From sequence record NC_025447.1: DNA of 64,000 bases. One strand, written 5' to 3'. Below are positions 1 to 63,343 of this stretch, in pieces. Both the position numbers and the translations under genes were made by a program. The notes below the pieces were generated by a model. That model was not told the DNA's origin and did no database searches. It saw nothing but the letters and a program-made list of their open reading frames with translations. How positions within the stretch are numbered: position 1 is the stretch's first letter; every line of letters starts with the position of its first letter. This DNA is from Escherichia phage 121Q.

Positions 1-5252
<5,252 letters not shown>

Positions 5253-5282
5253 TTAAAAAATATGGGACAGTATAAAAACCTG

Positions 5283-5291
5283 TGCTATAAT
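5283..5291 (+). promoter_or_regulatory. extended -10 promoter element (TGCTATAAT), proximal SSB promoter
   Basis: Member of the recurring TGTG(A/C)TATAATG motif. Confidence 0.5.
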
Positions 5292-5378
5292 GTAAAACGT
5301 TGAAGGAACAATGAAGTTTCTGAAACATTGAAGCCAATTAACAAATAACAAAGAAACCCAAAATCAAGGAAGATATAT

Positions 5379-6431
5379 ATGAAATCTCTAGCTGAAATTC
5401 GTGCACACCTAAAAGCAGAACAAGAAAAAGCAGAAGCTCAAAAGAATGGTACATTTACTGGCGAGCGTAAAGCTGATTCGTTCTTAGCTTTCTGGAACGT
5501 ACCTTATAACGAACCACTAAACCTACGTTTTCTACCAGATGCAGATGAGTCTAACCCATTCTTCTGGCGTGAACGTGACATGATTAACCTAACTTTCAAT
5601 GGTGTAGTCGGTATGCACACTGATAAAGTTACCGTTCAAGTACCTTGTAACGAAATGTGGGTTCCTAAATCCTGTCCGGTTCTGAAAGAAGTACGTCAAT
5701 GGTTCCAAAGTGCGAATGAAACAGGGAACGAAGAACTAAAAGCAATGGCTGGTCGTTACTGGAAGAAGAAAACCTATCTAATGCAATGTTTTATTGCTCC
5801 TGATAGCGTTGCAGTAAAAGACGACATTGCACCAGAAAATCCAATTCGTCGTATTCTGGCTAACAAAGATATCTTTGATAAAGTTAAATCCATCCTGCTA
5901 AACCCAGGAATCAAAGAGTCTCCAACTCACTACGTTCAAGGTCGTGATTTTGGTATTGTTAAAACTAAGAATGGTGGTGGTTATAATAGCTACGACATGT
6001 CTCAATTCTCCATGTCTGAGCGTCCACTAAACGAAGAAGAACTAGCAGCAATTGAAAAATATGGCCTATACAATCTAAATGATTTTATGCCAAAACAACC
6101 AACTCCAGAAGAGTTGAAAGCAATTGAAGAAATGTTCGAAGCATCAGTAAATGGTGAAGCATATGATCCAGCACGTTGGGCATTTGCATATCGTCCAGCA
6201 GGTGTACCAAAACCTAACTCTGGAACTGTTACTGAATCAAAACCAACTCCTGCTCCAGTACAACAAGAGTCAGCACCTGCACCAGTAGCACCTACTGCTC
6301 CAGTTACTCCAGCCCCACAAGCTGCTCCAGTAACTCCAGTCGCTACCCCAGCAGCAACCACTCCTGAAGCACCAAAAGAACAACTATCTGCATCTGCACT
6401 AGTTGCTCGTTTGAAACAACAAGGTAAGTAA
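5379..6431 (+). CDS. 32: single-stranded DNA-binding protein (gp32-like) with Pro/Ala-rich C-terminal tail
   Basis: RFLP motif and His/Cys zinc-site spacing (H...C...C) resemble T4 gp32; AAGGAAG RBS; hairpin terminator directly downstream. Confidence 0.65.
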   Translation: MKSLAEIRAHLKAEQEKAEAQKNGTFTGERKADSFLAFWNVPYNEPLNLRFLPDADESNPFFWRERDMINLTFNGVVGMHTDKVTVQVPCNEMWVPKSCPVLKEVRQWFQSANETGNEELKAMAGRYWKKKTYLMQCFIAPDSVAVKDDIAPENPIRRILANKDIFDKVKSILLNPGIKESPTHYVQGRDFGIVKTKNGGGYNSYDMSQFSMSERPLNEEELAAIEKYGLYNLNDFMPKQPTPEELKAIEEMFEASVNGEAYDPARWAFAYRPAGVPKPNSGTVTESKPTPAPVQQESAPAPVAPTAPVTPAPQAAPVTPVATPAATTPEAPKEQLSASALVARLKQQGK

Positions 6432-6449
6432 TAGTTTTTGAAAAGTTAA

Positions 6450-6478
6450 GGGGCAACGGAGTTTGCCCCGTTTTATTT
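6450..6478 (+). terminator. intrinsic terminator after SSB gene
   Basis: GGGGCAA / TTGCCCC stem followed by GTTTTATTT. Confidence 0.75.
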
Positions 6479-6500
6479 CATGAAATTCAAGGAGCGAATT

Positions 6501-7619
6501 ATGAAAATGACAAGTGGTTTTGCGAACATTCTTAAAAACAGTACTGGTAGTGTTAAAAAGAATACTGGTGTTAGTGTTGGTTTTCATGATCCAGATACAT
6601 GGGTTAGTACTGGTAACTACGCACTAAATTATCGCATCAGTGGCTATTTTGACCGTGGTATCCCACTAGGCAAAGTAACGATGTTTGCTGGTGAATCAGG
6701 TAGTGGTAAATCTTTTATCGTATCTGGTAATATTGCACGTGAAGCTCAAAAACAAGGCATCTTTGTTGTTATGATTGACTCAGAGAACGCATTGGATTCA
6801 GATTGGCTTCAAGCACTTGGTGTTGACACTTCTGAAGAAAAACTTTTGAAAGTCAATATGGGTATGATTGGTGACGTTGCAAAATTCACCTATGAGTTCA
6901 TTGAAGGATATCGTAAAGAATACGAAAATACACCTAAAGATGAACGTCAAAAAGTATTGTTTATTATTGATTCAATTGGTATGCTAAACACTGAAGTAGC
7001 CAATGATCAAATGAAAGCGGGTAACCTTAAAGGTGACATGGGTCATAAACCCAAACAGCTTAAAGCATATATCACAAACTGTGTAAACTCTATTGGTTCA
7101 TTGAACATTGGTATGGTTTGCGTTAACCACAGTTATGAATCTCAGGACATGTTTAACCCAGATCCTAAAGTTTCAGGTGGTAGTGGCTTGATTTATGCTT
7201 CATCTATGGTTATCGCAATGGGTAAATTAAAACTTAAAGAAGATGAAGACGGAAATAAAACTTCCGAAGTAAATGGTATTCGTGCTAAATGTAAAGTCAT
7301 GAAGACTCGTTACAACAAGCCGTTCGAAGATGTAGAAATTAAAATTCCTTGGGATAAAGGTATGGACCCACGCAGTGGTCTACTAGATATGTTTGAAAAA
7401 TACGGTCTAATCACTAAATCAGGTAACCGTCTATTGTATGTTGATATTGTAACTGGCGAACAGATTCTAAAATATCGCAAAGAGTGGATGCGTAATGAAG
7501 ATTCATGTCTTGATTTGGTAATGCATCAATTTAAAAATCATCCTTTGATTGAAGAAGTTAAAGAAGAAGAAAAAGGTGATGAAACTTTTGGTACTGATGT
7601 GGATATTAGTGAGGAATAA
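6501..7619 (+). CDS. uvsX: UvsX recombinase (RecA-like)
   Basis: Walker A GESGSGKS, NHSYE and GMDPRSGLLDM blocks match T4 UvsX; start placed at ATG 6501 behind an AAGGAG RBS rather than ORF-track 6480. Confidence 0.9.
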   Translation: MKMTSGFANILKNSTGSVKKNTGVSVGFHDPDTWVSTGNYALNYRISGYFDRGIPLGKVTMFAGESGSGKSFIVSGNIAREAQKQGIFVVMIDSENALDSDWLQALGVDTSEEKLLKVNMGMIGDVAKFTYEFIEGYRKEYENTPKDERQKVLFIIDSIGMLNTEVANDQMKAGNLKGDMGHKPKQLKAYITNCVNSIGSLNIGMVCVNHSYESQDMFNPDPKVSGGSGLIYASSMVIAMGKLKLKEDEDGNKTSEVNGIRAKCKVMKTRYNKPFEDVEIKIPWDKGMDPRSGLLDMFEKYGLITKSGNRLLYVDIVTGEQILKYRKEWMRNEDSCLDLVMHQFKNHPLIEEVKEEEKGDETFGTDVDISEE

Positions 7620-50914: not shown

Positions 50915-52051
50915 ATGTCCGAGAAAGAAATCAATCCTAAAAAAGCATCCACCGCAGCTAAATCAGCAAAACGTACTACTAAAACTGCGACTAAAGGTCA
51001 TACAATTGATGCAAGTGATATTTTTAACCAAACTACAAAATCACTACCAGTACTGAAAGATGTTAAGGGAAATACTATGTCTCTAACAGTTCAAAACATC
51101 AATACTGTTGGTACAACTGCTGGTGCTGCTGTTGGGCGTTTGGCTGATGAAATTATGTCTAAAGTTAATGTAACGGATGACAATACCGAGTTTGGTAAAT
51201 CAATCACCACAATTCTTACGTTGACTCGTGCAGTTGATATTGATAGTCTTCAAGAAGATAAATCAATTGTTGGTCGTATTAAGAAATTCTTTGTTAATGC
51301 TCAACAGAAAGTAGGTGATCAGTACAAAAACAGTAAAGAGCAAATTGACGAAATTATGAAAACTCTTCAAACTGGTATTAATCGCCAGCACGGAGAATGT
51401 GAATGGCTTGATAAAGCATATAATGAAAACAAAGAATATTTGTTTGAATTGCGTGATACATTAGTTGGTTTAGAAGAAGTGACTAAAACACAAGATGCAT
51501 TATTAGTAGAAATGCAAGCAGACAAAAATGTAGACTCTTTTGCTATTCAAGAGCAAAAGATGATTTGTGAAGCACTTTCTAAACAAGAAGATAAGATTCG
51601 TCGTCTTATCATGATGTGCGAGCTAAGTGGTCCACGTTTGATGAGTATGAAAAAAGTAAACTTAAACACTGTTTCTAAGTTTGAAGATTTAAAATCTGTT
51701 GTTATTCCAGCATGGAAGTCTCAATTGGCTGAACAGTTAATTTCCGAGCGTCAACGTAAGGATAATGAACTAGGCAATCTGATTGATAATGAGACAAACC
51801 GTCTTTTGGAAACTAACTCTAAAATGGTTGCAGCAAATATGTTGGACGCAGCAAAGGCAAACAACCGTGGTATTGTGGATATTAAAACCTTGCGTAATGT
51901 ACATAAAACGATGATTGACAGTATTGAAGCAGTTATTGAAGAAGAGAAAAAAGGTAAATTGGAACGTGAACGTGCTAAACAGGAAATTGCACAACTTTCC
52001 TATGAACTGGAAGACACTCTTCGTGAAATTGCCGAAAAAGCTAACAAGTAA
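50915..52051 (+). CDS. hypothetical coiled-coil protein
   Basis: Consensus promoter upstream, GAGGAA RBS. Confidence 0.55.
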   Translation: MSEKEINPKKASTAAKSAKRTTKTATKGHTIDASDIFNQTTKSLPVLKDVKGNTMSLTVQNINTVGTTAGAAVGRLADEIMSKVNVTDDNTEFGKSITTILTLTRAVDIDSLQEDKSIVGRIKKFFVNAQQKVGDQYKNSKEQIDEIMKTLQTGINRQHGECEWLDKAYNENKEYLFELRDTLVGLEEVTKTQDALLVEMQADKNVDSFAIQEQKMICEALSKQEDKIRRLIMMCELSGPRLMSMKKVNLNTVSKFEDLKSVVIPAWKSQLAEQLISERQRKDNELGNLIDNETNRLLETNSKMVAANMLDAAKANNRGIVDIKTLRNVHKTMIDSIEAVIEEEKKGKLERERAKQEIAQLSYELEDTLREIAEKANK

Positions 52052-52054
52052 TAG

Positions 52055-52083
52055 TTGACATATGAGTGCGTTTTTAATATAAT
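52055..52083 (+). promoter_or_regulatory. sigma70-type promoter (TTGACA-17-TATAAT) upstream of dexA-like gene
   Basis: Perfect hexamers; -10 lies in the loop of the 52065-52100 hairpin. Confidence 0.65.
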
Positions 52084-52106
52084 CTTATTGAAAACGCACT
52101 CTTTTT
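52065..52106 (+). terminator. hairpin plus T-run enclosing a promoter -10
   Basis: AGTGCGTTTT / AAAACGCACT 10-bp inverted repeat, then CTTTTT. Confidence 0.55.
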
Positions 52107-52130: not shown

Positions 52131-52820
52131 ATGAAACGTCGTCATATTAGTGTTGATATTGAAGCTCTTGGAACACCTGAACTTTCCGGTTATGATATTA
52201 TTATCCCAAATTACGCAGCAGTAGTAGTTCCAAGTAAACCTGAAAATGACATTCGTCAGTTCTTATATATTAAATTACCATACCAGGATCAAGTTGCTAC
52301 TGGTTTAAAATCAGACGCAGGTGCAATGGATTTTTGGATGAATACATGTCAGAAAGAATACCCTAATGCATATTCTGAAGTTGCCAGTACTATGAAACTC
52401 AAAGCACCTGAACTGTATGGACCGAATGGTCAATCACGACGATTTTTTGCATACAGTAGTATTGTTGATTTCTGGAAAGAATTACGTTACAATGATTATG
52501 GTGAAGAAGTTCCTCATTCAGTCTGGGGTAATGGATGTAACTTCGATTGTAGTATTTTACAAGCAAACCATTTAAAACTAATGAACGCTGGTGAGTTGTG
52601 GAAGTATGATGCACCTGAAAATGCACGCACATTGAAACGTTTATTGAATGAAGAAGCTCGTATTGAAATGGATGAAATCGTTTCGGTACAGTTGGATAAA
52701 TTTATCACATATGCAAATACGTGTGGGATTAATGGGTTGGAGTTACATCATCCACTATTTGATGCAGCACGTGAAGCAATCCAGATTTCATTCTGTCTAA
52801 ACAAGCTTAAAATGGATTAA
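52131..52820 (+). CDS. dexA: exonuclease A (DexA-like DEDDh)
   Basis: VDIEALG, GNGCNFDCSIL and HHPLFDAAREA blocks parallel T4 DexA. Confidence 0.65.
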   Translation: MKRRHISVDIEALGTPELSGYDIIIPNYAAVVVPSKPENDIRQFLYIKLPYQDQVATGLKSDAGAMDFWMNTCQKEYPNAYSEVASTMKLKAPELYGPNGQSRRFFAYSSIVDFWKELRYNDYGEEVPHSVWGNGCNFDCSILQANHLKLMNAGELWKYDAPENARTLKRLLNEEARIEMDEIVSVQLDKFITYANTCGINGLELHHPLFDAAREAIQISFCLNKLKMD

Positions 52821-52823
52821 TAC

Positions 52824-53918
52824 ATGAATTTCATTATTCTGTTAATACCTGCTCTTATCGTTGTATTCGTTATGAAATACATGTACGATAAGCATATCAG
52901 TACTAAAGAACTATTGATTCATATTGGTTGTTGTCTGGTTGGTGCGGCTCTTGTTCTTGGTATTTCATACGCAATCAACTATAGCCAGCTTTATGATGTT
53001 GAGATTCTGAATGGTCAAGTAACTTCAAAATACAGCCACAAAGAATATTGCACACAATCTAGTTCATGTAAGCACTATACATGGCATGAGAAGTGCCATA
53101 CGCGATATGATAGTAAAGGTAAATCACATCGTGAGTGTGAATCATATAAGGTTTTTGATTACTCATATGAAGTTGATTGGTATGTGAAAAGTACAGTAGG
53201 TGAGTTTGAGATTGAACGTGTGAACCGTCAAGGTACAATGACACCACCACGATGGCAGCAAGTTATGATTGGTGACTATGCCGCAGCAGAGAGTTCATAT
53301 ATCAACTATCTATTTGCTGATAAGAACTCATTGTTTAGTCCTGAAGAACTACACAACATGTATGATGAAAAGTATCTTAGTACTATTCCAGAATACCCAA
53401 GTGTAGTTGATTATTACAAAACACATCACGTAATTAACACTACAAATTACAACGTTGATGGTTACGATGAATACCTTCGTAATGAGCTAAAAACGATGGG
53501 TGCACGTAAGCAGGTAAACATCCAAGTACTAGTATATGATTACAAAGATGTGGATTTTGTTGATGCTACCCTTGCATCGTGGCGTGGTGGTAAGAAGAAT
53601 GATGTTATTATGTTCTTTGGTATTGACAATGATGGTAACGTTGTTAAATTCAACAGTACATCATTTGCACAAGGAATGAAGAATGAAGATTTACATGCAA
53701 AGATGCGTATTGATGCATTAAATGAAAAATTAACTCTTGACTTACTAGTTAAAGAAGTACATAATATTGACGCACAGTTTGAGAGACTCTCTAATAAAGA
53801 GTTTGAGTACTTGTCAGTAAAAATGGAACCTAGAAAAGATGTTCTTATCGGTGCTTCCATTGTTTTGTTGATTCTGTCTATTTTCATTGGCCTTTATATG
53901 AGGGATAACGATTTATGA
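52824..53918 (+). CDS. membrane protein (N- and C-terminal TM segments)
   Basis: Hydrophobic segments at both ends, Cys/His-rich central part. Confidence 0.5.
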   Translation: MNFIILLIPALIVVFVMKYMYDKHISTKELLIHIGCCLVGAALVLGISYAINYSQLYDVEILNGQVTSKYSHKEYCTQSSSCKHYTWHEKCHTRYDSKGKSHRECESYKVFDYSYEVDWYVKSTVGEFEIERVNRQGTMTPPRWQQVMIGDYAAAESSYINYLFADKNSLFSPEELHNMYDEKYLSTIPEYPSVVDYYKTHHVINTTNYNVDGYDEYLRNELKTMGARKQVNIQVLVYDYKDVDFVDATLASWRGGKKNDVIMFFGIDNDGNVVKFNSTSFAQGMKNEDLHAKMRIDALNEKLTLDLLVKEVHNIDAQFERLSNKEFEYLSVKMEPRKDVLIGASIVLLILSIFIGLYMRDNDL

Positions 53919-54469
53919 ATGGTAAACTCCTTGCGTTAATTGGTATTTTGGTAGTTATCGTACTAATGGTGTTTGGTTCTATTAGTATGTATGTTGGTAC
54001 ACATGATCGTGCAGTTGAGTTTGAAGGAAACATTAAAAAGTACTATGATGCATCTGAAAGTCAACTTAGCAATTATAATCTTACTATTCAAGATAAGGTT
54101 CAAGTAGCAGATAAGTACAAAGATGCGTTGAAAGAAACGATTGAATCATACTTTAAAGGGCGTGAAGGTGTTGACCAGAAGTTTGTAATGTCACAGATTC
54201 AACAACAGGTTCCAAATCTTGATCCTAAAATTTATCAGGAATTGATGGTGACAATTGAAGCAGGACGTACAAAGTTCAACAATCTTCAGAAAATGAAAAT
54301 TGACCAGTGTACTGATTATGCTAAGTTCCGCAAAGGCTTCTGGAATTCCAAAATTCTTGATTCGAATACGTTTCCAAGTGAAAATATTGAACACCTTTGT
54401 ACAGTAGTATCTGATACGCGTACCAAGAAAGCAATGGATACTGGTATTCAAGAATCAATTAAACTATAA
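53915..54469 (+). CDS. LemA-like membrane protein
   Basis: N-terminal TM and C-terminal region resembling LemA family (ELMVTIEAGRTKFNNL...YAKFRKGF). Confidence 0.4.
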   Translation: MNGKLLALIGILVVIVLMVFGSISMYVGTHDRAVEFEGNIKKYYDASESQLSNYNLTIQDKVQVADKYKDALKETIESYFKGREGVDQKFVMSQIQQQVPNLDPKIYQELMVTIEAGRTKFNNLQKMKIDQCTDYAKFRKGFWNSKILDSNTFPSENIEHLCTVVSDTRTKKAMDTGIQESIKL

Positions 54470-54478
54470 TTAAATGTT

Positions 54479-54503
54479 GGGAGTACTTTGTACTCCCCTT
54501 TTC
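54479..54503 (+). terminator. intrinsic terminator
   Basis: GGGAGTAC / GTACTCCC stem plus CTTTT. Confidence 0.8.
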
Positions 54504-54516
54504 TATGGGGTGTACT

Positions 54517-55092
54517 ATGTTTTTAAAAAATACTTATGAATTAATTAAAATGCTTCAAAATATGAATTCAGGTGGATTGTTTCCCTATTACTCTGAGGAT
54601 GAAACTCATCGTTTAGTCCTTAAATTGGATGAAACTGGACGTATTATATCACTAAGAACAACAGTTCCCAGTGTAGAACCAGTAATTACCAAATCGACTC
54701 AAAATTCAGGAACTGCTGTTCAAACACCACAAATGTACACGATTAGCACTCCACCTATTAAACGAGTTGCTTGTATTGTGAATATAAAAGTATCTAAGGA
54801 CTATCGTGACTTAATATCAGTAGAATGGTCAGAACTAACATCATCATTAGCAGGAAATGGATTTGTAGTATCTAATGGATTTGTTACTACAAATCCAAGT
54901 CCAGCACAAAATGTGAAAGAAGGACAACAGATCATGAGTGCATTGTATCTTAGTAATGGTTGTGTTATCATCAATGGTAAGTTGTATAGCGATTCCGACC
55001 CCACAGCATTCACTGAAGATTTGATTGGTGATAAAGAATACAGCATTCTTGAAATTATGAATTTTAAAAAGGTATATGAAAACCATGACTAG
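54517..55092 (+). CDS. hypothetical protein
   Basis: ATG 54517 after terminator (ORF track begins 54505). Confidence 0.45.
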   Translation: MFLKNTYELIKMLQNMNSGGLFPYYSEDETHRLVLKLDETGRIISLRTTVPSVEPVITKSTQNSGTAVQTPQMYTISTPPIKRVACIVNIKVSKDYRDLISVEWSELTSSLAGNGFVVSNGFVTTNPSPAQNVKEGQQIMSALYLSNGCVIINGKLYSDSDPTAFTEDLIGDKEYSILEIMNFKKVYENHD

Positions 55093-55657
55093 ATTTCATC
55101 AAGATGATTTGCCATTTATACAAGAACTAGAAGAACTGGTGATAAGTATTATGGATGAAATTAGTACTTGGGATATAACAGTTTTTCGAAATGTATATGA
55201 TAAAGTGGTGAATTTTAAAAATGTTAATATTGAAGTAAAACATAATAATTTTTACTTAACAAAACAATTCATTCTAACTCGTCCTGGAACAAAGCCAGTT
55301 AAACGTAATTTGTCATTCGGACACCTGGTTGGTGCAGAAAATGTACATGATGAATGGGTTGATTCAATCTATTCGTATACAAAAGCACTTATTCCTGATA
55401 TTGAGAAAAAATATTATCTTAGTATAACATTAGATGAAAACGGAAATCTTAATGCATATTCAATAAATTCTTCTTCAAATGTTCCATTACATTCAGTGAC
55501 GATTGGTGATAAAAAAATGCTAATAAATTCTGAAACATGGTATAATAGAGAAAATTTCGCAGCAGAATCATTTCAGTACTCAGTATCTGAACCAAAGTCA
55601 CCTTTTGATTTAGTGTTTGTTAATAATATTATTTTACGTTTTGGTGTAGGAGTGTAA
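55076..55657 (+). CDS. hypothetical protein
   Basis: ORF track. Confidence 0.45.
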   Translation: MKTMTRFHQDDLPFIQELEELVISIMDEISTWDITVFRNVYDKVVNFKNVNIEVKHNNFYLTKQFILTRPGTKPVKRNLSFGHLVGAENVHDEWVDSIYSYTKALIPDIEKKYYLSITLDENGNLNAYSINSSSNVPLHSVTIGDKKMLINSETWYNRENFAAESFQYSVSEPKSPFDLVFVNNIILRFGVGV

Positions 55658-55660
55658 TTT

Positions 55661-56014
55661 ATGCTAATTTATTTAAGTGTTATTGTAATTTCGTTACTGG
55701 TATCATTCGCTGTTCTTAAAATTGTTGCTATTTGTAGAAGTAAGATTGATAGTTCTGAAACTAGATCAGTACTTGACTTGATTATGGATCATCCTAAAAT
55801 CTGTGGTATTATTGTATTATTCGTTGTACTGATTAATACATATATTGTCAGGGAACATTTATATAATATGTATGATTGTAGTGTACGTTCTATTTCACAA
55901 GGTGTTGAAACAGACTATAGTTGGTACTATGAGAAATGTCGATTTAAAAACCAGCATGGTATTTGGGTTGATTTTGATAAACTACGTGGAACTCCTTCAG
56001 GAGAAGAAGAATAA
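55661..56014 (+). CDS. small membrane protein
   Basis: N-terminal TM segment. Confidence 0.45.
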   Translation: MLIYLSVIVISLLVSFAVLKIVAICRSKIDSSETRSVLDLIMDHPKICGIIVLFVVLINTYIVREHLYNMYDCSVRSISQGVETDYSWYYEKCRFKNQHGIWVDFDKLRGTPSGEEE

Positions 56015-56016
56015 TT

Positions 56017-56508
56017 ATGTTTGAATTCCCAGAAGAGTCATTTAACTTCATTGACCCTACTGATGATGGATACCGACATATTAACATTTATAGTAAAGCC
56101 AGAACGAAGTTAGGTAGAGATCTATCTAACTTTTCTTCGCACAGCTTCAAACTTGAACCATATGGATGGTTCCCATCAGTTGAAACATTTTACTTTTGGT
56201 TTTTAACTGGTCAAAAACATGATGACCTTAGAAAAGTATCTGGGGCAGCAGCAAAGGCCGCCGCTAACAAATATATGCATGATCGAATTGAAATGACAGA
56301 TGATTGTATCTCAATAATCCAAGATGCTATTTGTGCTAAGATAATTCAAAATCCAGAGTTAGCCGAAAGATTAAGAAAAAGTAAATTGCCTTTTTACCAT
56401 TACTATGTATATGGTGGTAAAGTTGTAGATGTATCCGACGAACATGATTGGTTTGTTAAAACATTCGAATATATAAGAACGGTGTTAAAGGAAAACTATA
56501 ATGGGTAA
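56017..56508 (+). CDS. NADAR-domain (YbiA-like) protein
   Basis: LSNFSSHSF, ETFYFWFLTG and AKIIQNPELAERLRKS blocks resemble NADAR/YbiA family. Confidence 0.45.
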   Translation: MFEFPEESFNFIDPTDDGYRHINIYSKARTKLGRDLSNFSSHSFKLEPYGWFPSVETFYFWFLTGQKHDDLRKVSGAAAKAAANKYMHDRIEMTDDCISIIQDAICAKIIQNPELAERLRKSKLPFYHYYVYGGKVVDVSDEHDWFVKTFEYIRTVLKENYNG

Positions 56509-56779
56509 ATGTTGGGTATGTGTCAAGGTGTTTGATGAAGAATATGAAATAATATTAGATGTATTACCACAGCAGTACATGGTGTGTAATGAAAAATACA
56601 AATTGGACACCTACCCGACCCCCATGTACATGGGAATATGTCCTTTGTGTGATTCAAATGGTGTGTCCAATAGTGAGATTTCATTCACTAACCAAGCCAC
56701 AACTAACTGTGTATCTGGGTATATAAGAGAGAATCGAGAATATTTTATTAGGAGATTATATGAACGACAAAATCTTTGA
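56501..56779 (+). CDS. zinc-ribbon small protein
   Basis: CWVC ... CPLC pairs. Confidence 0.4.
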   Translation: MGKCWVCVKVFDEEYEIILDVLPQQYMVCNEKYKLDTYPTPMYMGICPLCDSNGVSNSEISFTNQATTNCVSGYIRENREYFIRRLYERQNL

Positions 56780-56990
56780 TACATATGACATCGATACTTT
56801 ACTAACACCATCTGATAACAGTACTGTTAAAATGGACATGTACTGGATTGTCGTTGATAAAAAAGTATTTAGACATAAAATTACTAAAGTTTGGCAATGT
56901 AATAAAAACAAATCTATTGTTGAGGGATTGGCACAATGCATTCCTAATGCAGAGGTTTTATTTTTACCATACGCATATACAAAGGAATAA
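56760..56990 (+). CDS. hypothetical small protein
   Basis: ORF track. Confidence 0.4.
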   Translation: MNDKIFDTYDIDTLLTPSDNSTVKMDMYWIVVDKKVFRHKITKVWQCNKNKSIVEGLAQCIPNAEVLFLPYAYTKE

Positions 56991-56991
56991 A

Positions 56992-57153
56992 ATGAAAAAA
57001 ACTTGGAAAATATTCACAATACCTGCTATAATGTTGTTATTGGCACTTTTCACACCGCAGAGTCATGTATTGTCTCTTAATATTGTGGAAATAATTCTTC
57101 TTGTAATTCACTGTGTCGTGTGTTATAATTATGTAAAAGGTGATAAAGAATGA
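56992..57153 (+). CDS. small hydrophobic protein
   Basis: ATG 56992 with AAAGGA RBS; C-terminal part of ORF-track 56848..57153. Confidence 0.35.
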   Translation: MKKTWKIFTIPAIMLLLALFTPQSHVLSLNIVEIILLVIHCVVCYNYVKGDKE

Positions 57154-57572
57154 AGTTCTTTAAAATTCGAATTGGTGTAAGTTCTGGTTTATCTCATTGG
57201 GTATTTTATGATTTACCTGATAGTTATACTATTGATGATGTAATTGATTTATATACCGAAGATCAACAATGGGTGTTAGATACCGAAACACATAGAATTG
57301 ATTGTCAAGAGATTAGTGAAGAAGATTACAAGCACGGAAAGCAAGCCATGAAGTATTTTGAAACAAATATCAAAATGCTGTCTGAAAACGTATTTCCTGT
57401 AAAAGAATGGGCAATTTTACTTGCTAATCCTAAAAAACCTGTTAGAATTGGTTATCCAAATTTTCATATGGTGTATCGTATGAATGATAAGCGAGAGCTT
57501 AACTATCAATACGATTACGATTCATCTAAGTTTGGAGTTCTTAAACAATTTTTAAAGGCTTATCCAGTATGA
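57150..57572 (+). CDS. hypothetical protein
   Basis: ORF track. Confidence 0.45.
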   Translation: MKFFKIRIGVSSGLSHWVFYDLPDSYTIDDVIDLYTEDQQWVLDTETHRIDCQEISEEDYKHGKQAMKYFETNIKMLSENVFPVKEWAILLANPKKPVRIGYPNFHMVYRMNDKRELNYQYDYDSSKFGVLKQFLKAYPV

Positions 57573-57904
57573 GTGAAGATAGTAAAGAGTATATTTTACG
57601 TTGTTCTTGTGGCGATAAAATGGAGCATTGCGTTCACATTGCACAATTTGACTTGACAGAGGAATATGGAGATGATAAACTTGGTCAATGTCTGATAAGT
57701 ATGCGTTTAAATCCTTTTTTAAAATGGTATAACCGTGTATGGGTTGCAGTAAAGTATGTTTTTGGTGTAAACGACTATCAATATGTAGAAGCAACAATTG
57801 ATGTTGACATTCTAAAAGAAGTTGTGTTACAATTAGAAGATACTAGAACTGATGAGGTTAAAAAAGAACAAAGAGAAAAACGTACTGATGTGAAGGTTTT
57901 ATGA
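57569..57904 (+). CDS. hypothetical Cys/His-containing protein
   Basis: ORF track. Confidence 0.4.
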   Translation: MSEDSKEYILRCSCGDKMEHCVHIAQFDLTEEYGDDKLGQCLISMRLNPFLKWYNRVWVAVKYVFGVNDYQYVEATIDVDILKEVVLQLEDTRTDEVKKEQREKRTDVKVL

Positions 57905-58095
57905 GTACTGAACTTTATGAAAAAAAGTACTGTACAAATTGCTCAACTGAGTATACAATACAAGGTATGTTGATTTGTACAATATGTCAGTCAAAGAAAT
58001 CAGCAACTTTCATCGTTGATGATAGATTTGGTGATTTGAAACAGTTTAAAGCAAACCGCAATCTTCGTATTTTTAGCAATCTAAATAAGGAATAA
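57901..58095 (+). CDS. zinc-ribbon small protein
   Basis: CTNC ... CTIC pairs. Confidence 0.4.
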   Translation: MSTELYEKKYCTNCSTEYTIQGMLICTICQSKKSATFIVDDRFGDLKQFKANRNLRIFSNLNKE

Positions 58096-59247: not shown

Positions 59248-59274
59248 TGCCCCGATCTTCGGGGCATTTTTCTT
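59248..59274 (+). terminator. intrinsic terminator
   Basis: TGCCCCGA / TCGGGGCA stem plus TTTTT. Confidence 0.8.
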
Positions 59275-62482: not shown

Positions 62483-63343
62483 ATGAAACCTATCCGAGTA
62501 CTTTCTCTTTTTAATGGAATGAGTGTGGGATATATGGCATTGCAAGATGCTGGTATCCCAGTTGAAAAATATTATTCATCCGAAATTGATAAGTACGCAA
62601 TAGCTGAATCTCAATCTAACTTTCCTGATATTATCCAATTGGGTGATGTAACTAAGTGGAGAGAATGGGATATTGAGTGGGACAAAATAGATTTATTAAT
62701 GGGTGGTTTCCCATGCCAAGCCTGGTCAGTTGCAGGTAAACAGGGTGGTTTAAATGATATACGTGGGCAGTTATTTTTAGTAATGGTTGAAATTTTTGAT
62801 CATATCAAAAGTCTCAATCCTAACTTGAAATTTCTGTTTGAAAATGTTAAAATGAAGGAAGATTTCAAAGAATACATTAATAGTATTTTAGGAATCACGC
62901 CAGTACTGATAAACTCCCAGCATTATACGCCTCACTTCAGGCAGAGATATTACTGGTACAGTACTGATAAGCTTTTTATACCACCTGCATTATCCAATGC
63001 ACCTAAACTTCAAGATATTATTGAAGATGGTTGGTACACTGACAGAACCGCTTCGTACTGTATAGATGCTAACTATTTTAAAGGTGGTGATTGTAACCAG
63101 TACTTTAATAAATCCAGACGACAATTGGTGTTTCGTGATCCAGTGATTAATCGTCAATATCTATTAGAGAATGGCAAAAGAAATATTGACTATAGACACT
63201 TAAGTGTAGTAGAATGTTGTAAATTACAGGGTGTTCCTGAAGATTTCTTTAAAGTGTCTAGTAAGACACAAGCATACAAAATGCTTGGGAATGGATGGAC
63301 TATGCCAGTTATATCACATTTACTAAGAGAGATATTCTTTTGA
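62483..63343 (+). CDS. DNA (cytosine-5)-methyltransferase (orphan)
   Basis: Motif I region LSLFNGMSVG, motif IV GFPCQAWS, motif VI ENVK; no adjacent restriction endonuclease. Confidence 0.8.
   Translation: MKPIRVLSLFNGMSVGYMALQDAGIPVEKYYSSEIDKYAIAESQSNFPDIIQLGDVTKWREWDIEWDKIDLLMGGFPCQAWSVAGKQGGLNDIRGQLFLVMVEIFDHIKSLNPNLKFLFENVKMKEDFKEYINSILGITPVLINSQHYTPHFRQRYYWYSTDKLFIPPALSNAPKLQDIIEDGWYTDRTASYCIDANYFKGGDCNQYFNKSRRQLVFRDPVINRQYLLENGKRNIDYRHLSVVECCKLQGVPEDFFKVSSKTQAYKMLGNGWTMPVISHLLREIFF

Follow-up and report, generated by a model that had tools for sequence, protein, structure and literature searches.

All NADAR subfamilies that have been assayed hydrolyse guanine-linked ADP-ribose (ADPr) on both DNA and RNA (PMC11125620, PMC11833690), and studies published in 2024-25 reported phage NADARs that counter the DarTG1 defence system (PMC11825919). 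T4 gp30.3, also called AdfN, acts as a DNA ADP-ribosylglycohydrolase that guards T-even phages from DarTG1, and each of the three phage NADARs that have been tried (AdfN-T4, AdfN-Bas32, and AdfN-Bas60) counters this system (PMC11825919). The published hallmark of the phage enzymes is a His in the last beta-strand, in place of the Glu of YbiA or the Asp of DarG1 (PMC11543638, PMC11125620). Here we describe gp73 of Escherichia phage 121Q, a small protein encoded in a stretch of 64,000 nucleotides of the phage genome (NC_025447.1; hereafter the window) and labelled "hypothetical" in all databases and sources. An initial annotation, made from the sequence alone, had called gp73 a NADAR/YbiA-like protein and suggested that it reverses DNA ADP-ribosylation by DarT-type toxins. 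Its premise that NADAR enzymes strip ADPr from guanine in DNA is in line with the literature (PMC11125620, PMC11833690), and its interpretation as a whole is borne out in part. Sequence profiles show gp73 to be a distant NADAR, closest to T4 AdfN, and place it in a large phage family of its own. The gene is the following:

56017..56508, + strand: coding sequence, stop codon included, of a divergent NADAR-fold protein of 163 aa, identical to phage 121Q gp73 (YP_009101667.1)

Curated libraries do not recognize this protein. Pfam-A returned nothing for gp73 at E<=10, including PF08719 (NADAR) and PF08010 (Phage_30_3), and single-sequence searches of the PDB (phmmer), NCBIfam, and PADLOC also returned nothing; PADLOC says little here, as it missed the AdfN-T4 control too. 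The only strong library matches were PHROGs, phrog_652 (7.5e-45) and phrog_11222, both annotated as "unknown function". Among 27 gp73 relatives, PF08719 was touched by five (best E 0.024, against 3.5e-36 for the control bas60_0111), and PF08010, which has a gathering score of 36 bits, was matched below threshold by six (best 20-27 bits, against 237 bits for the T4 gp30.3 control) and not at all by gp73. When a family profile was instead built from the alignment of 27 homologs and searched against 177,635 PDB sequences, the only matches were two NADARs, 8BAU chain A (Phytophthora, E 1.1e-4) and 2B3W chain A (E. coli YbiA, 4.6e-4). The AlphaFold2 model of gp73 has a pLDDT of 90.4; its confident Foldseek matches in the PDB were three NADAR structures only, and in the viral structure library BFVD its nearest neighbours beyond its own unnamed family were dozens of proteins named NADAR. 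The assignment of gp73 to the NADAR fold is secure. The domain call of the initial annotation therefore stands at the level of fold and profile homology but not as a match to a curated library profile, and the hidden Markov model (HMM) search that it had proposed as a check divides in the same way, with nothing from Pfam and only NADARs from the family profile. The open reading frame (ORF) and the three sequence blocks behind that call are all real: the start codon is ATG in both the ORF list and the raw sequence, and the blocks occur exactly as quoted at residues 36-44 (LSNFSSHSF), 56-65 (ETFYFWFLTG), and 107-122 (AKIIQNPELAERLRKS). In solved NADARs, these blocks correspond to the SNF motif, the helix with the catalytic Glu, and the A..AK(F/I).QN helix. 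They are not chance strings, for they fall on the columns that the family conserves best, with S37/N38/F39, E56, and K108 invariant or close to it.

The position of gp73 within the superfamily was assessed by comparing alignments of the gp73 family, the AdfN family, and canonical NADARs seeded on AdfN-Bas60 with hhalign. The gp73 family aligned with AdfN with a probability of 96.9% (E 1.5e-10) over 140 columns (query 20-162, template 2-152), which is approximately full length and includes the His strand. Its alignment with canonical NADARs including AdfN-Bas60 reached 95.1% (E 3.4e-8) and covered 86 columns in the N-terminal two-thirds only; AdfN and the canonical NADARs aligned at 95.0% (E 4e-8) over 134 columns. 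These profile-profile comparisons therefore place gp73 in a third, His-type family that is sister to AdfN and is captured by neither PF08719 nor PF08010.

Contacts between PnNADAR and ADPr (PMC11543638) were mapped onto gp73 through the alignments, and residues were counted over 176 family members. The positions that matter most are the following:

56125..56133, + strand: S37-N38-F39, the SNF motif common to the whole superfamily (S 159/176, N 173/176, F 167/176)
56182..56184, + strand: E56, equivalent by alignment to the catalytic Glu (PnNADAR E43, EcC7 E88, AdfN-T4 E36), invariant in the family (176/176)
56203..56205, + strand: L63, aligned to the phosphate/adenine-binding Lys (PnNADAR K50, EcC7 K95, AdfN-T4 K43)
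56254..56256, + strand: K80, equivalent of PnNADAR K75 and EcC7 K115, aligned to AKKLGR / K.LGR (K 174/176)
56398..56400, + strand: H128 of the HYY motif, where the last beta-hairpin begins (173/176), aligned with AdfN H123

The gp73 SNF motif aligns with LSNF of 8BAU and FSNF of YbiA. In the model, H128 stands at the start of strand 129-132, which is followed by strand 135-138. Beyond the Glu and the His, approximately 20 other positions are nearly absolutely conserved over these 176 diverse members. Only two residues are conserved broadly among NADARs, and the Lys seven residues after the catalytic Glu (Glu+7), which binds adenine and pyrophosphate, is one of them; its replacement in EcC7 K95A abolishes activity (PMC11543638). 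Across the 176 gp73-family members, this column holds Ser in 42, Leu in 40, Gly in 40, Lys in 15, and Ala in 12. The Pn residues K75, G78, and R79 of the K..GR motif line the pyrophosphate site, and EcC7 K115 is required for DarT1 rescue and was proposed to recognize DNA (PMC11543638). The Gly-Arg of this motif is A83-N84 in gp73; in the family, the Gly is kept by 164/176, and the Arg position is basic in 127/176 (Arg in 84, Lys in 43). The equivalent of Pn R93 is Cys in gp73 and Phe or Cys in the family. The two losses thus differ in depth, with the GR arginine gone in the gp73 clade and the Glu+7 Lys gone family-wide (K in 15/176). As far as the alignments tell, the ribose-flanking catalytic pair is intact and the pyrophosphate clamp is remodelled. 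K85, which is adjacent to A83-N84, might substitute for the lost Arg, and the conserved basic residues K27, R34, R72, K108, and K135 could be candidate substitutes for the missing Lys. In AdfN-T4, both E36A and K43A reduce rescue to a partial level without losing it (PMC11825919); because K43A still rescues in part, His-type NADARs do not strictly need the Lys.

Compared with T4 gp30.3/AdfN, gp73 is likewise a stand-alone protein of ~150-160 aa with a NADAR fold, from a large virulent myovirus, and encoded amid small accessory genes. In addition to the aligned Glu and His, the two share a Gly at +5 from the His and an AK..G helix. Unlike AdfN, gp73 has no PF08010 match and no BLAST-level similarity to it, has Leu, Ser, or Gly in its family at the K43 position, and carries the family-specific motifs DG..HIN.YSK..T.LGR, EGYWYW, and HYY. 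The anti-DarTG1 activity of AdfN is proven, whereas the gp73 family is known here from sequence and model. With canonical NADAR/YbiA proteins (PF08719; 2B3W, 8BAU; AdfN-Bas60, AdfN-Bas32), gp73 shares the SNF motif, the catalytic Glu, the LR...AK..GR region, and the A..AKF.QN helix, but the canonical C-terminal E...D..WG.G..G.N.LG is replaced by LPF.HYY.YGGK in its family, the Glu+7 Lys is missing, and it matches neither PF08719 nor TIGR02464 (3.5e-36 and 1.9e-31 for bas60_0111). AdfN-Bas60 was considered as a member of the same family, given that the Vequintavirinae phage Hena1 carries one, and was rejected: Bas60 (MZ501100) is phi92-like, its NADAR, bas60_0111, is of the canonical PF08719/TIGR02464 type, and no gp73-family member occurs in its genome. 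The antitoxins of the DarG1/BC4488 type (8BAT; E. coli C7 NADAR) have the activity that a phage protein would mimic, and they also keep the Glu and the K80 equivalent, EcC7 K115. In the last strand, DarG1 has an Asp (D171) where gp73 has His128, and Lys95 is present in DarG1 but not in gp73. DarG1 is also always next to DarT1, whereas gp73 has no adjacent toxin (its ten neighbours lack Pfam domains, and PADLOC found none). A separate observation on NADARs is that NCBIfam NF053876, "NADAR family anti-phage protein" (DS32_2), was seen with locus L007:33014-33562, and that PADLOC PDC-M42C matches AdfN-Bas60; NADAR domains therefore serve defence as well as counter-defence.

We favour, with a probability of roughly 0.42, the reading that gp73 is an N-glycosidic ADP-ribosyl hydrolase for nucleobases, which, like AdfN, would serve in counter-defence against transferases of the DarT1 type. 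Behind this choice stand the homology and the shared fold, a Glu/His/K80 triad that is kept intact, and the precedent of the NADAR assays. On this reading, gp73 is a stand-alone divergent NADAR of the previously unmodelled family phrog_652, sister to T4 gp30.3/AdfN, in which the distal ribose would lie between Glu56, on the core helix, and His128, on the last beta-strand. ADPr would be cleaved from a nucleobase, most probably at guanine N2, on phage DNA and possibly on RNA, with K27, R34, K85, or K135 presumably compensating for the lost Lys. The marks erased would be the replication-blocking ones left by DarT1-type or pierisin-like ADP-ribosyltransferases (ARTs), and the protein would be made from a multi-gene, probably early, transcript. 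Genomic context also counts in its favour: gp73 lies in a replication/nucleotide region, and relatives are found by a single-stranded DNA-binding protein (SSB), by a histone-like protein and topoisomerase II, and in one case by an ART-toxin-like gene.

Several observations weigh against this reading. The gp73 family is absent from the assayed sets of all four studies of NADAR activity cited here (PMC11543638, PMC11125620, PMC11825919, PMC11833690). No DarT- or ART-related gene was found near gp73 among its ten neighbours or among the listed families of the Pfam survey of the window, in which 68 ORFs (1031-63822) were scanned and 25 of the 50 matched families are listed. The Glu+7 Lys is Leu in gp73 and non-basic in 161/176 members, and mutation of this Lys costs EcC7 its activity and weakens AdfN-T4 (PMC11543638, PMC11825919). 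The rest of the pyrophosphate site is remodelled as well, because the Arg79 equivalent is Asn84 and the R93 equivalent is Cys or Phe. The family is fused to SLOG/YAcAr, Macro, and DUF4326 domains, partners in which Iyer et al. saw a sign of soluble ADPr derivatives (PMC7824862, PMC9503650). Finally, the protection given by AdfN-T4 is context-specific, so activity in vitro need not give protection.

The family to which gp73 belongs is large. An exhaustive profile search gave 2,089 clusters at 50% identity, 1,651 of them at E<=1e-10, and tblastn located the family in 538 phage records, where it is labelled "hypothetical" throughout. The family is essentially phage-borne. Among the phages that carry it are Asteriusvirus, Klebsiella phage K64-1, Salmonella phage Munch, Pectobacterium phage CBB, Ackermannviridae (Kuttervirus and relatives), and Vibrio and Erwinia phages, and a member is also found in the 53-kb Chaseviridae phage ST32. 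Closer to home, gp73 is 95-99% identical across ~30 Asteriusvirus genomes, and the 3 kb tested around it (55000-58000) has 98.7% identity to Escherichia phage UB and its close relatives (PBECO4, phAPEC6), which are Asteriusvirus jumbo coliphages. The family is also associated with ADP-ribose-related domains. More than half of the best family representatives are multidomain, and the partners in 84 multidomain members are DUF4326 (25), YAcAr/SLOG (18), Macro (6), DUF488-N3a (6), and a canonical NADAR (1), with further SLOG-type partners matching DNA_processg_A-like, YpsA, and LDcluster4 models. Such fusions belong to the NAD+/ADP-ribose contextual network that was drawn up earlier around the NADAR domains of viruses (PMC7824862, PMC9503650). 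Among the side observations, the large polyvalent-type proteins P0217 (1415 aa), P0206, P0240, P0284, and P0177 combine the NADAR-like domain of this family with PF08719, DUF4326, Macro, and SLOG (YAcAr, YpsA) domains in varying order, and P0189 carries a calcineurin-like phosphoesterase.

No conserved operon partner was seen in six further neighbourhoods sampled. MazG, SLOG/DprA-like proteins, RNA-repair genes, Sir2, and ART appear as sporadic neighbours, and such variability without a fixed partner is as expected for a stand-alone accessory enzyme. In Erwinia phage Hena1 (L004:1939-5802), the gene order is phosphoesterase, RNA ligase, polynucleotide kinase (PNK), the family member, and Sir2; a DNA ligase and a phosphoribosyl pyrophosphate (PRPP) synthetase are close by, which gives the locus the look of an RNA-repair/NAD+ neighbourhood. 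The ST32 member is beside an SSB gene, the Amme-3 member is near a DprA-like SLOG protein and MazG, and the member of Salmonella phage GG32 is near a histone-like protein, MazG, and topoisomerase II. The annotated GG32 (Kuttervirus; L003:3929-4474) member (4121-4477, 118 aa) looks N-terminally truncated, as the open frame and the homology reach upstream to ~3929-4001 and the short coding sequence omits the conserved DG..HIN.YSK motif. In a 117-kb metagenomic phage contig (L014), the member (5001-5435) is convergent with an adjacent 392-aa ART-toxin-like gene (5500-6678, - strand) that matches PF03496 (ADPrib_exo_Tox) and, weakly, PF01129. In T4 itself, the ART gene alt is ~3 kb from gene 30.3.

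In the main rival to base-linked ADPr removal, the substrate would be a soluble ADPr derivative rather than a nucleic acid, with cyclic ADP-ribose (cADPR) isomers, His-ADPR, ADPr-1''P, or NAD-derived N-glycosides as candidate host immune signals or toxic metabolites, so that gp73 would blunt NAD+/ADPr defences such as Thoeris-like signalling or clear by-products of NAD-dependent RNA repair. The fusions to DUF4326, YAcAr/SLOG, and Macro in the 84 multidomain members speak for it, as do the phosphoesterase, RNA ligase, PNK, and Sir2 genes around the Hena1 member, and Iyer et al. read the whole network as low-molecular-weight ADPr processing, citing QAY00367.1, which is 94% identical to gp73, in that sense. 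A phosphate site without equivalents of the Glu+7 Lys, Arg79, and Arg93 would also fit a ligand other than canonical base-linked ADPr. However, action on a soluble immune signal has so far been shown for no NADAR, and NADAR biochemistry is all on base-linked ADPr or riboflavin intermediates (PMC11543638, PMC11125620, PMC11833690). K80, the equivalent of the proposed DNA contact, is invariant (174/176), and the window has no NAD-salvage or signalling gene next to gp73. We regard a soluble substrate as unlikely on balance, although it is a serious contender. The remodelled pocket also allows a broader proposal that we hold to be less likely still, namely that the substrate is something other than guanine-ADPr and that gp73 represents a large unmodelled third NADAR branch and a new class of counter-defence instead of another AdfN; thymine-, adenine-, or cytosine-ADPr and an N-glycosidic immune signal (His-ADPR or a cADPR isomer) are possibilities.

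The adjacency in contig L014 of a family member and an ADPrib_exo_Tox/ART gene suggests a different role, in which gp73 would provide editing or self-immunity against an ART of the phage itself or of a co-infecting element by clearing off-target base-linked ADPr from the nucleic acids of the phage, or would act on base-linked ADPr in RNA and not in DNA. The distance of ~3 kb between alt and gene 30.3 in T4 is compatible with this, as are the report of Iyer et al. that phage NADARs are co-expressed with ARTs as early genes and the finding that NADARs also remove guanosine-ADPr from RNA (PMC11833690). Yet such adjacency was seen in one contig only, the listed window families include no ART, the known phage ARTs (Alt, ModA, and ModB) modify proteins or the ends of RNA, and ADPr on phosphate ends is no substrate for NADARs (PMC11833690), all of which makes an editing role improbable. 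We consider it marginally more improbable that gp73 is catalytically impaired and serves as a sponge, shield, or inhibitor by binding, without hydrolysis, to ADPr, ADP-ribosylated DNA, or a host protein. Phages are well known to soak up immune nucleotides with sponge proteins, and the loss of the Glu+7 Lys family-wide and of the GR arginine in the gp73 clade would suit a binder, as would the inactivity of EcC7 NADAR K95A (PMC11543638). Against a binder, the Glu/His pair and ~20 other positions are near-invariant over 176 members, which argues for retained chemistry; AdfN-T4 K43A still rescues in part (PMC11825919), and K27, R34, R72, K108, and K135 could replace the Lys. A housekeeping N-glycosidase of the YbiA type, for detoxification of riboflavin-pathway intermediates or for nucleotide salvage, is very improbable: gp73 lacks the TIGR02464 and PF08719 matches on which the Bas60 control is strong, has His in place of the YbiA-defining Glu in the last strand and HYYVYGGK in place of the D..WG.G C-terminal motif, has no riboflavin gene nearby among the listed window families, and belongs to a family that is essentially phage-borne.

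In the local layout of the gene, the following feature precedes the start codon:

56000..56003, + strand: putative Shine-Dalgarno-like GGAG, 13 nt 5' of the ATG, from direct reading of the sequence

The gene upstream has its stop codon at 56012-56014, and the ORF downstream begins at 56501, with an overlap of 8 nt. The surrounding genes form a long, densely packed array, all on one strand, and the GGAG together with the upstream stop suggests translational coupling in this operon-like array. A perfect sigma-70 consensus (TTGACA-17-TATAAT, 12/12) at 52055-52083 is overlapped by a terminator-like hairpin with a 16-bp stem (52064-52101), just 5' of the exonuclease gene at 52131, and 52055-52101 may join a terminator and an early promoter in one element. 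Further terminator-like hairpins are at 54479-54497 and 59248-59266, and the promoter and hairpins together suggest a multi-gene unit that host RNA polymerase could read. Because the promoter scan of the window was not significantly enriched (58 found against 47±6.5 expected), the timing of transcription is something we infer.

The wider window is a DNA replication/nucleotide-metabolism module with ribonucleotide reductase, topoisomerase, DnaB, a RecA-like protein, a clamp loader, dihydrofolate reductase (DHFR), RNase H, a MazG-like protein, a C5-cytosine methylase, and TelA. The listed Pfam families contain no ART, DarT, Macro, Sir2, NAD-salvage, or riboflavin gene, and an HMM scan of the window found no gp73 paralog. 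No Pfam domain was found in the ten genes nearest gp73. The zinc-ribbon proteins that the initial annotation had placed nearby exist at the pattern level, since 56501-56779 and 57901-58095 both encode products with CxxC...CxxC; these small ORFs have no Pfam match and hit only phrog_35738 and phrog_27170, both of unknown function. In this otherwise non-structural-looking accessory array, the neighbours 53915-54469 and 57569-57904 match virion structural protein PHROGs (phrog_1383, phrog_12660); NADAR, Macro, and Nudix proteins are at times packaged in myovirus virions, according to an Aravind-lab survey. The C5-cytosine DNA methyltransferase (62483-63343) is ~6 kb 3' of gp73. The TelA-like "toxic anion resistance" protein (50915-52051) is ~4 kb 5' of it, and TelA is syntenic with a family member in the metagenomic contig L016 as well. 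One window ORF matches both domains of initiation factor 3 (IF-3; PF05198 5.8e-16, PF00707 8e-14), which suggests a phage-encoded IF3 homolog.

Parts of this picture were already in print. QAY00367.1, an example of a jumbo-phage NADAR in the 2021 survey (PMC7824862), shares the 90% cluster of gp73, and the NADAR domain call was therefore published for this ortholog group. The surveys of Iyer, Anantharaman, Krishnan, Burroughs, and Aravind (Viruses 2021; 2022) also present the same themes of NADAR fusion to SLOG, Macro, and DUF4326. They call the domain and predict in general terms that soluble ADPr signals are degraded, without a family description, active-site analysis, or experiment. Because that call and the anti-DarT role of phage NADARs have both been published, the conceptual advance made here is limited. 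What we add is a distinct His-type family that is unseen by Pfam and NCBIfam, together with how large it is, which domains it is fused to, and how systematically it has lost the Glu+7 Lys.

Since the family escapes every Pfam and NCBIfam model, current annotation pipelines have left its members in 538 phage genomes and ~2,100 clusters with the label "hypothetical", and a profile for the family would permit immediate re-annotation of these genes. Such a profile would also make it easier to foresee which phages used in therapy withstand defences of the DarTG1 type. That the Lys is lost family-wide offers a natural experiment on how NADARs bind ADPr and on a possible shift in substrate. If gp73 and its relatives are active, AdfN-type erasure of host-written ADPr would extend to many large phages, jumbo coliphages and Ackermannviridae among them.

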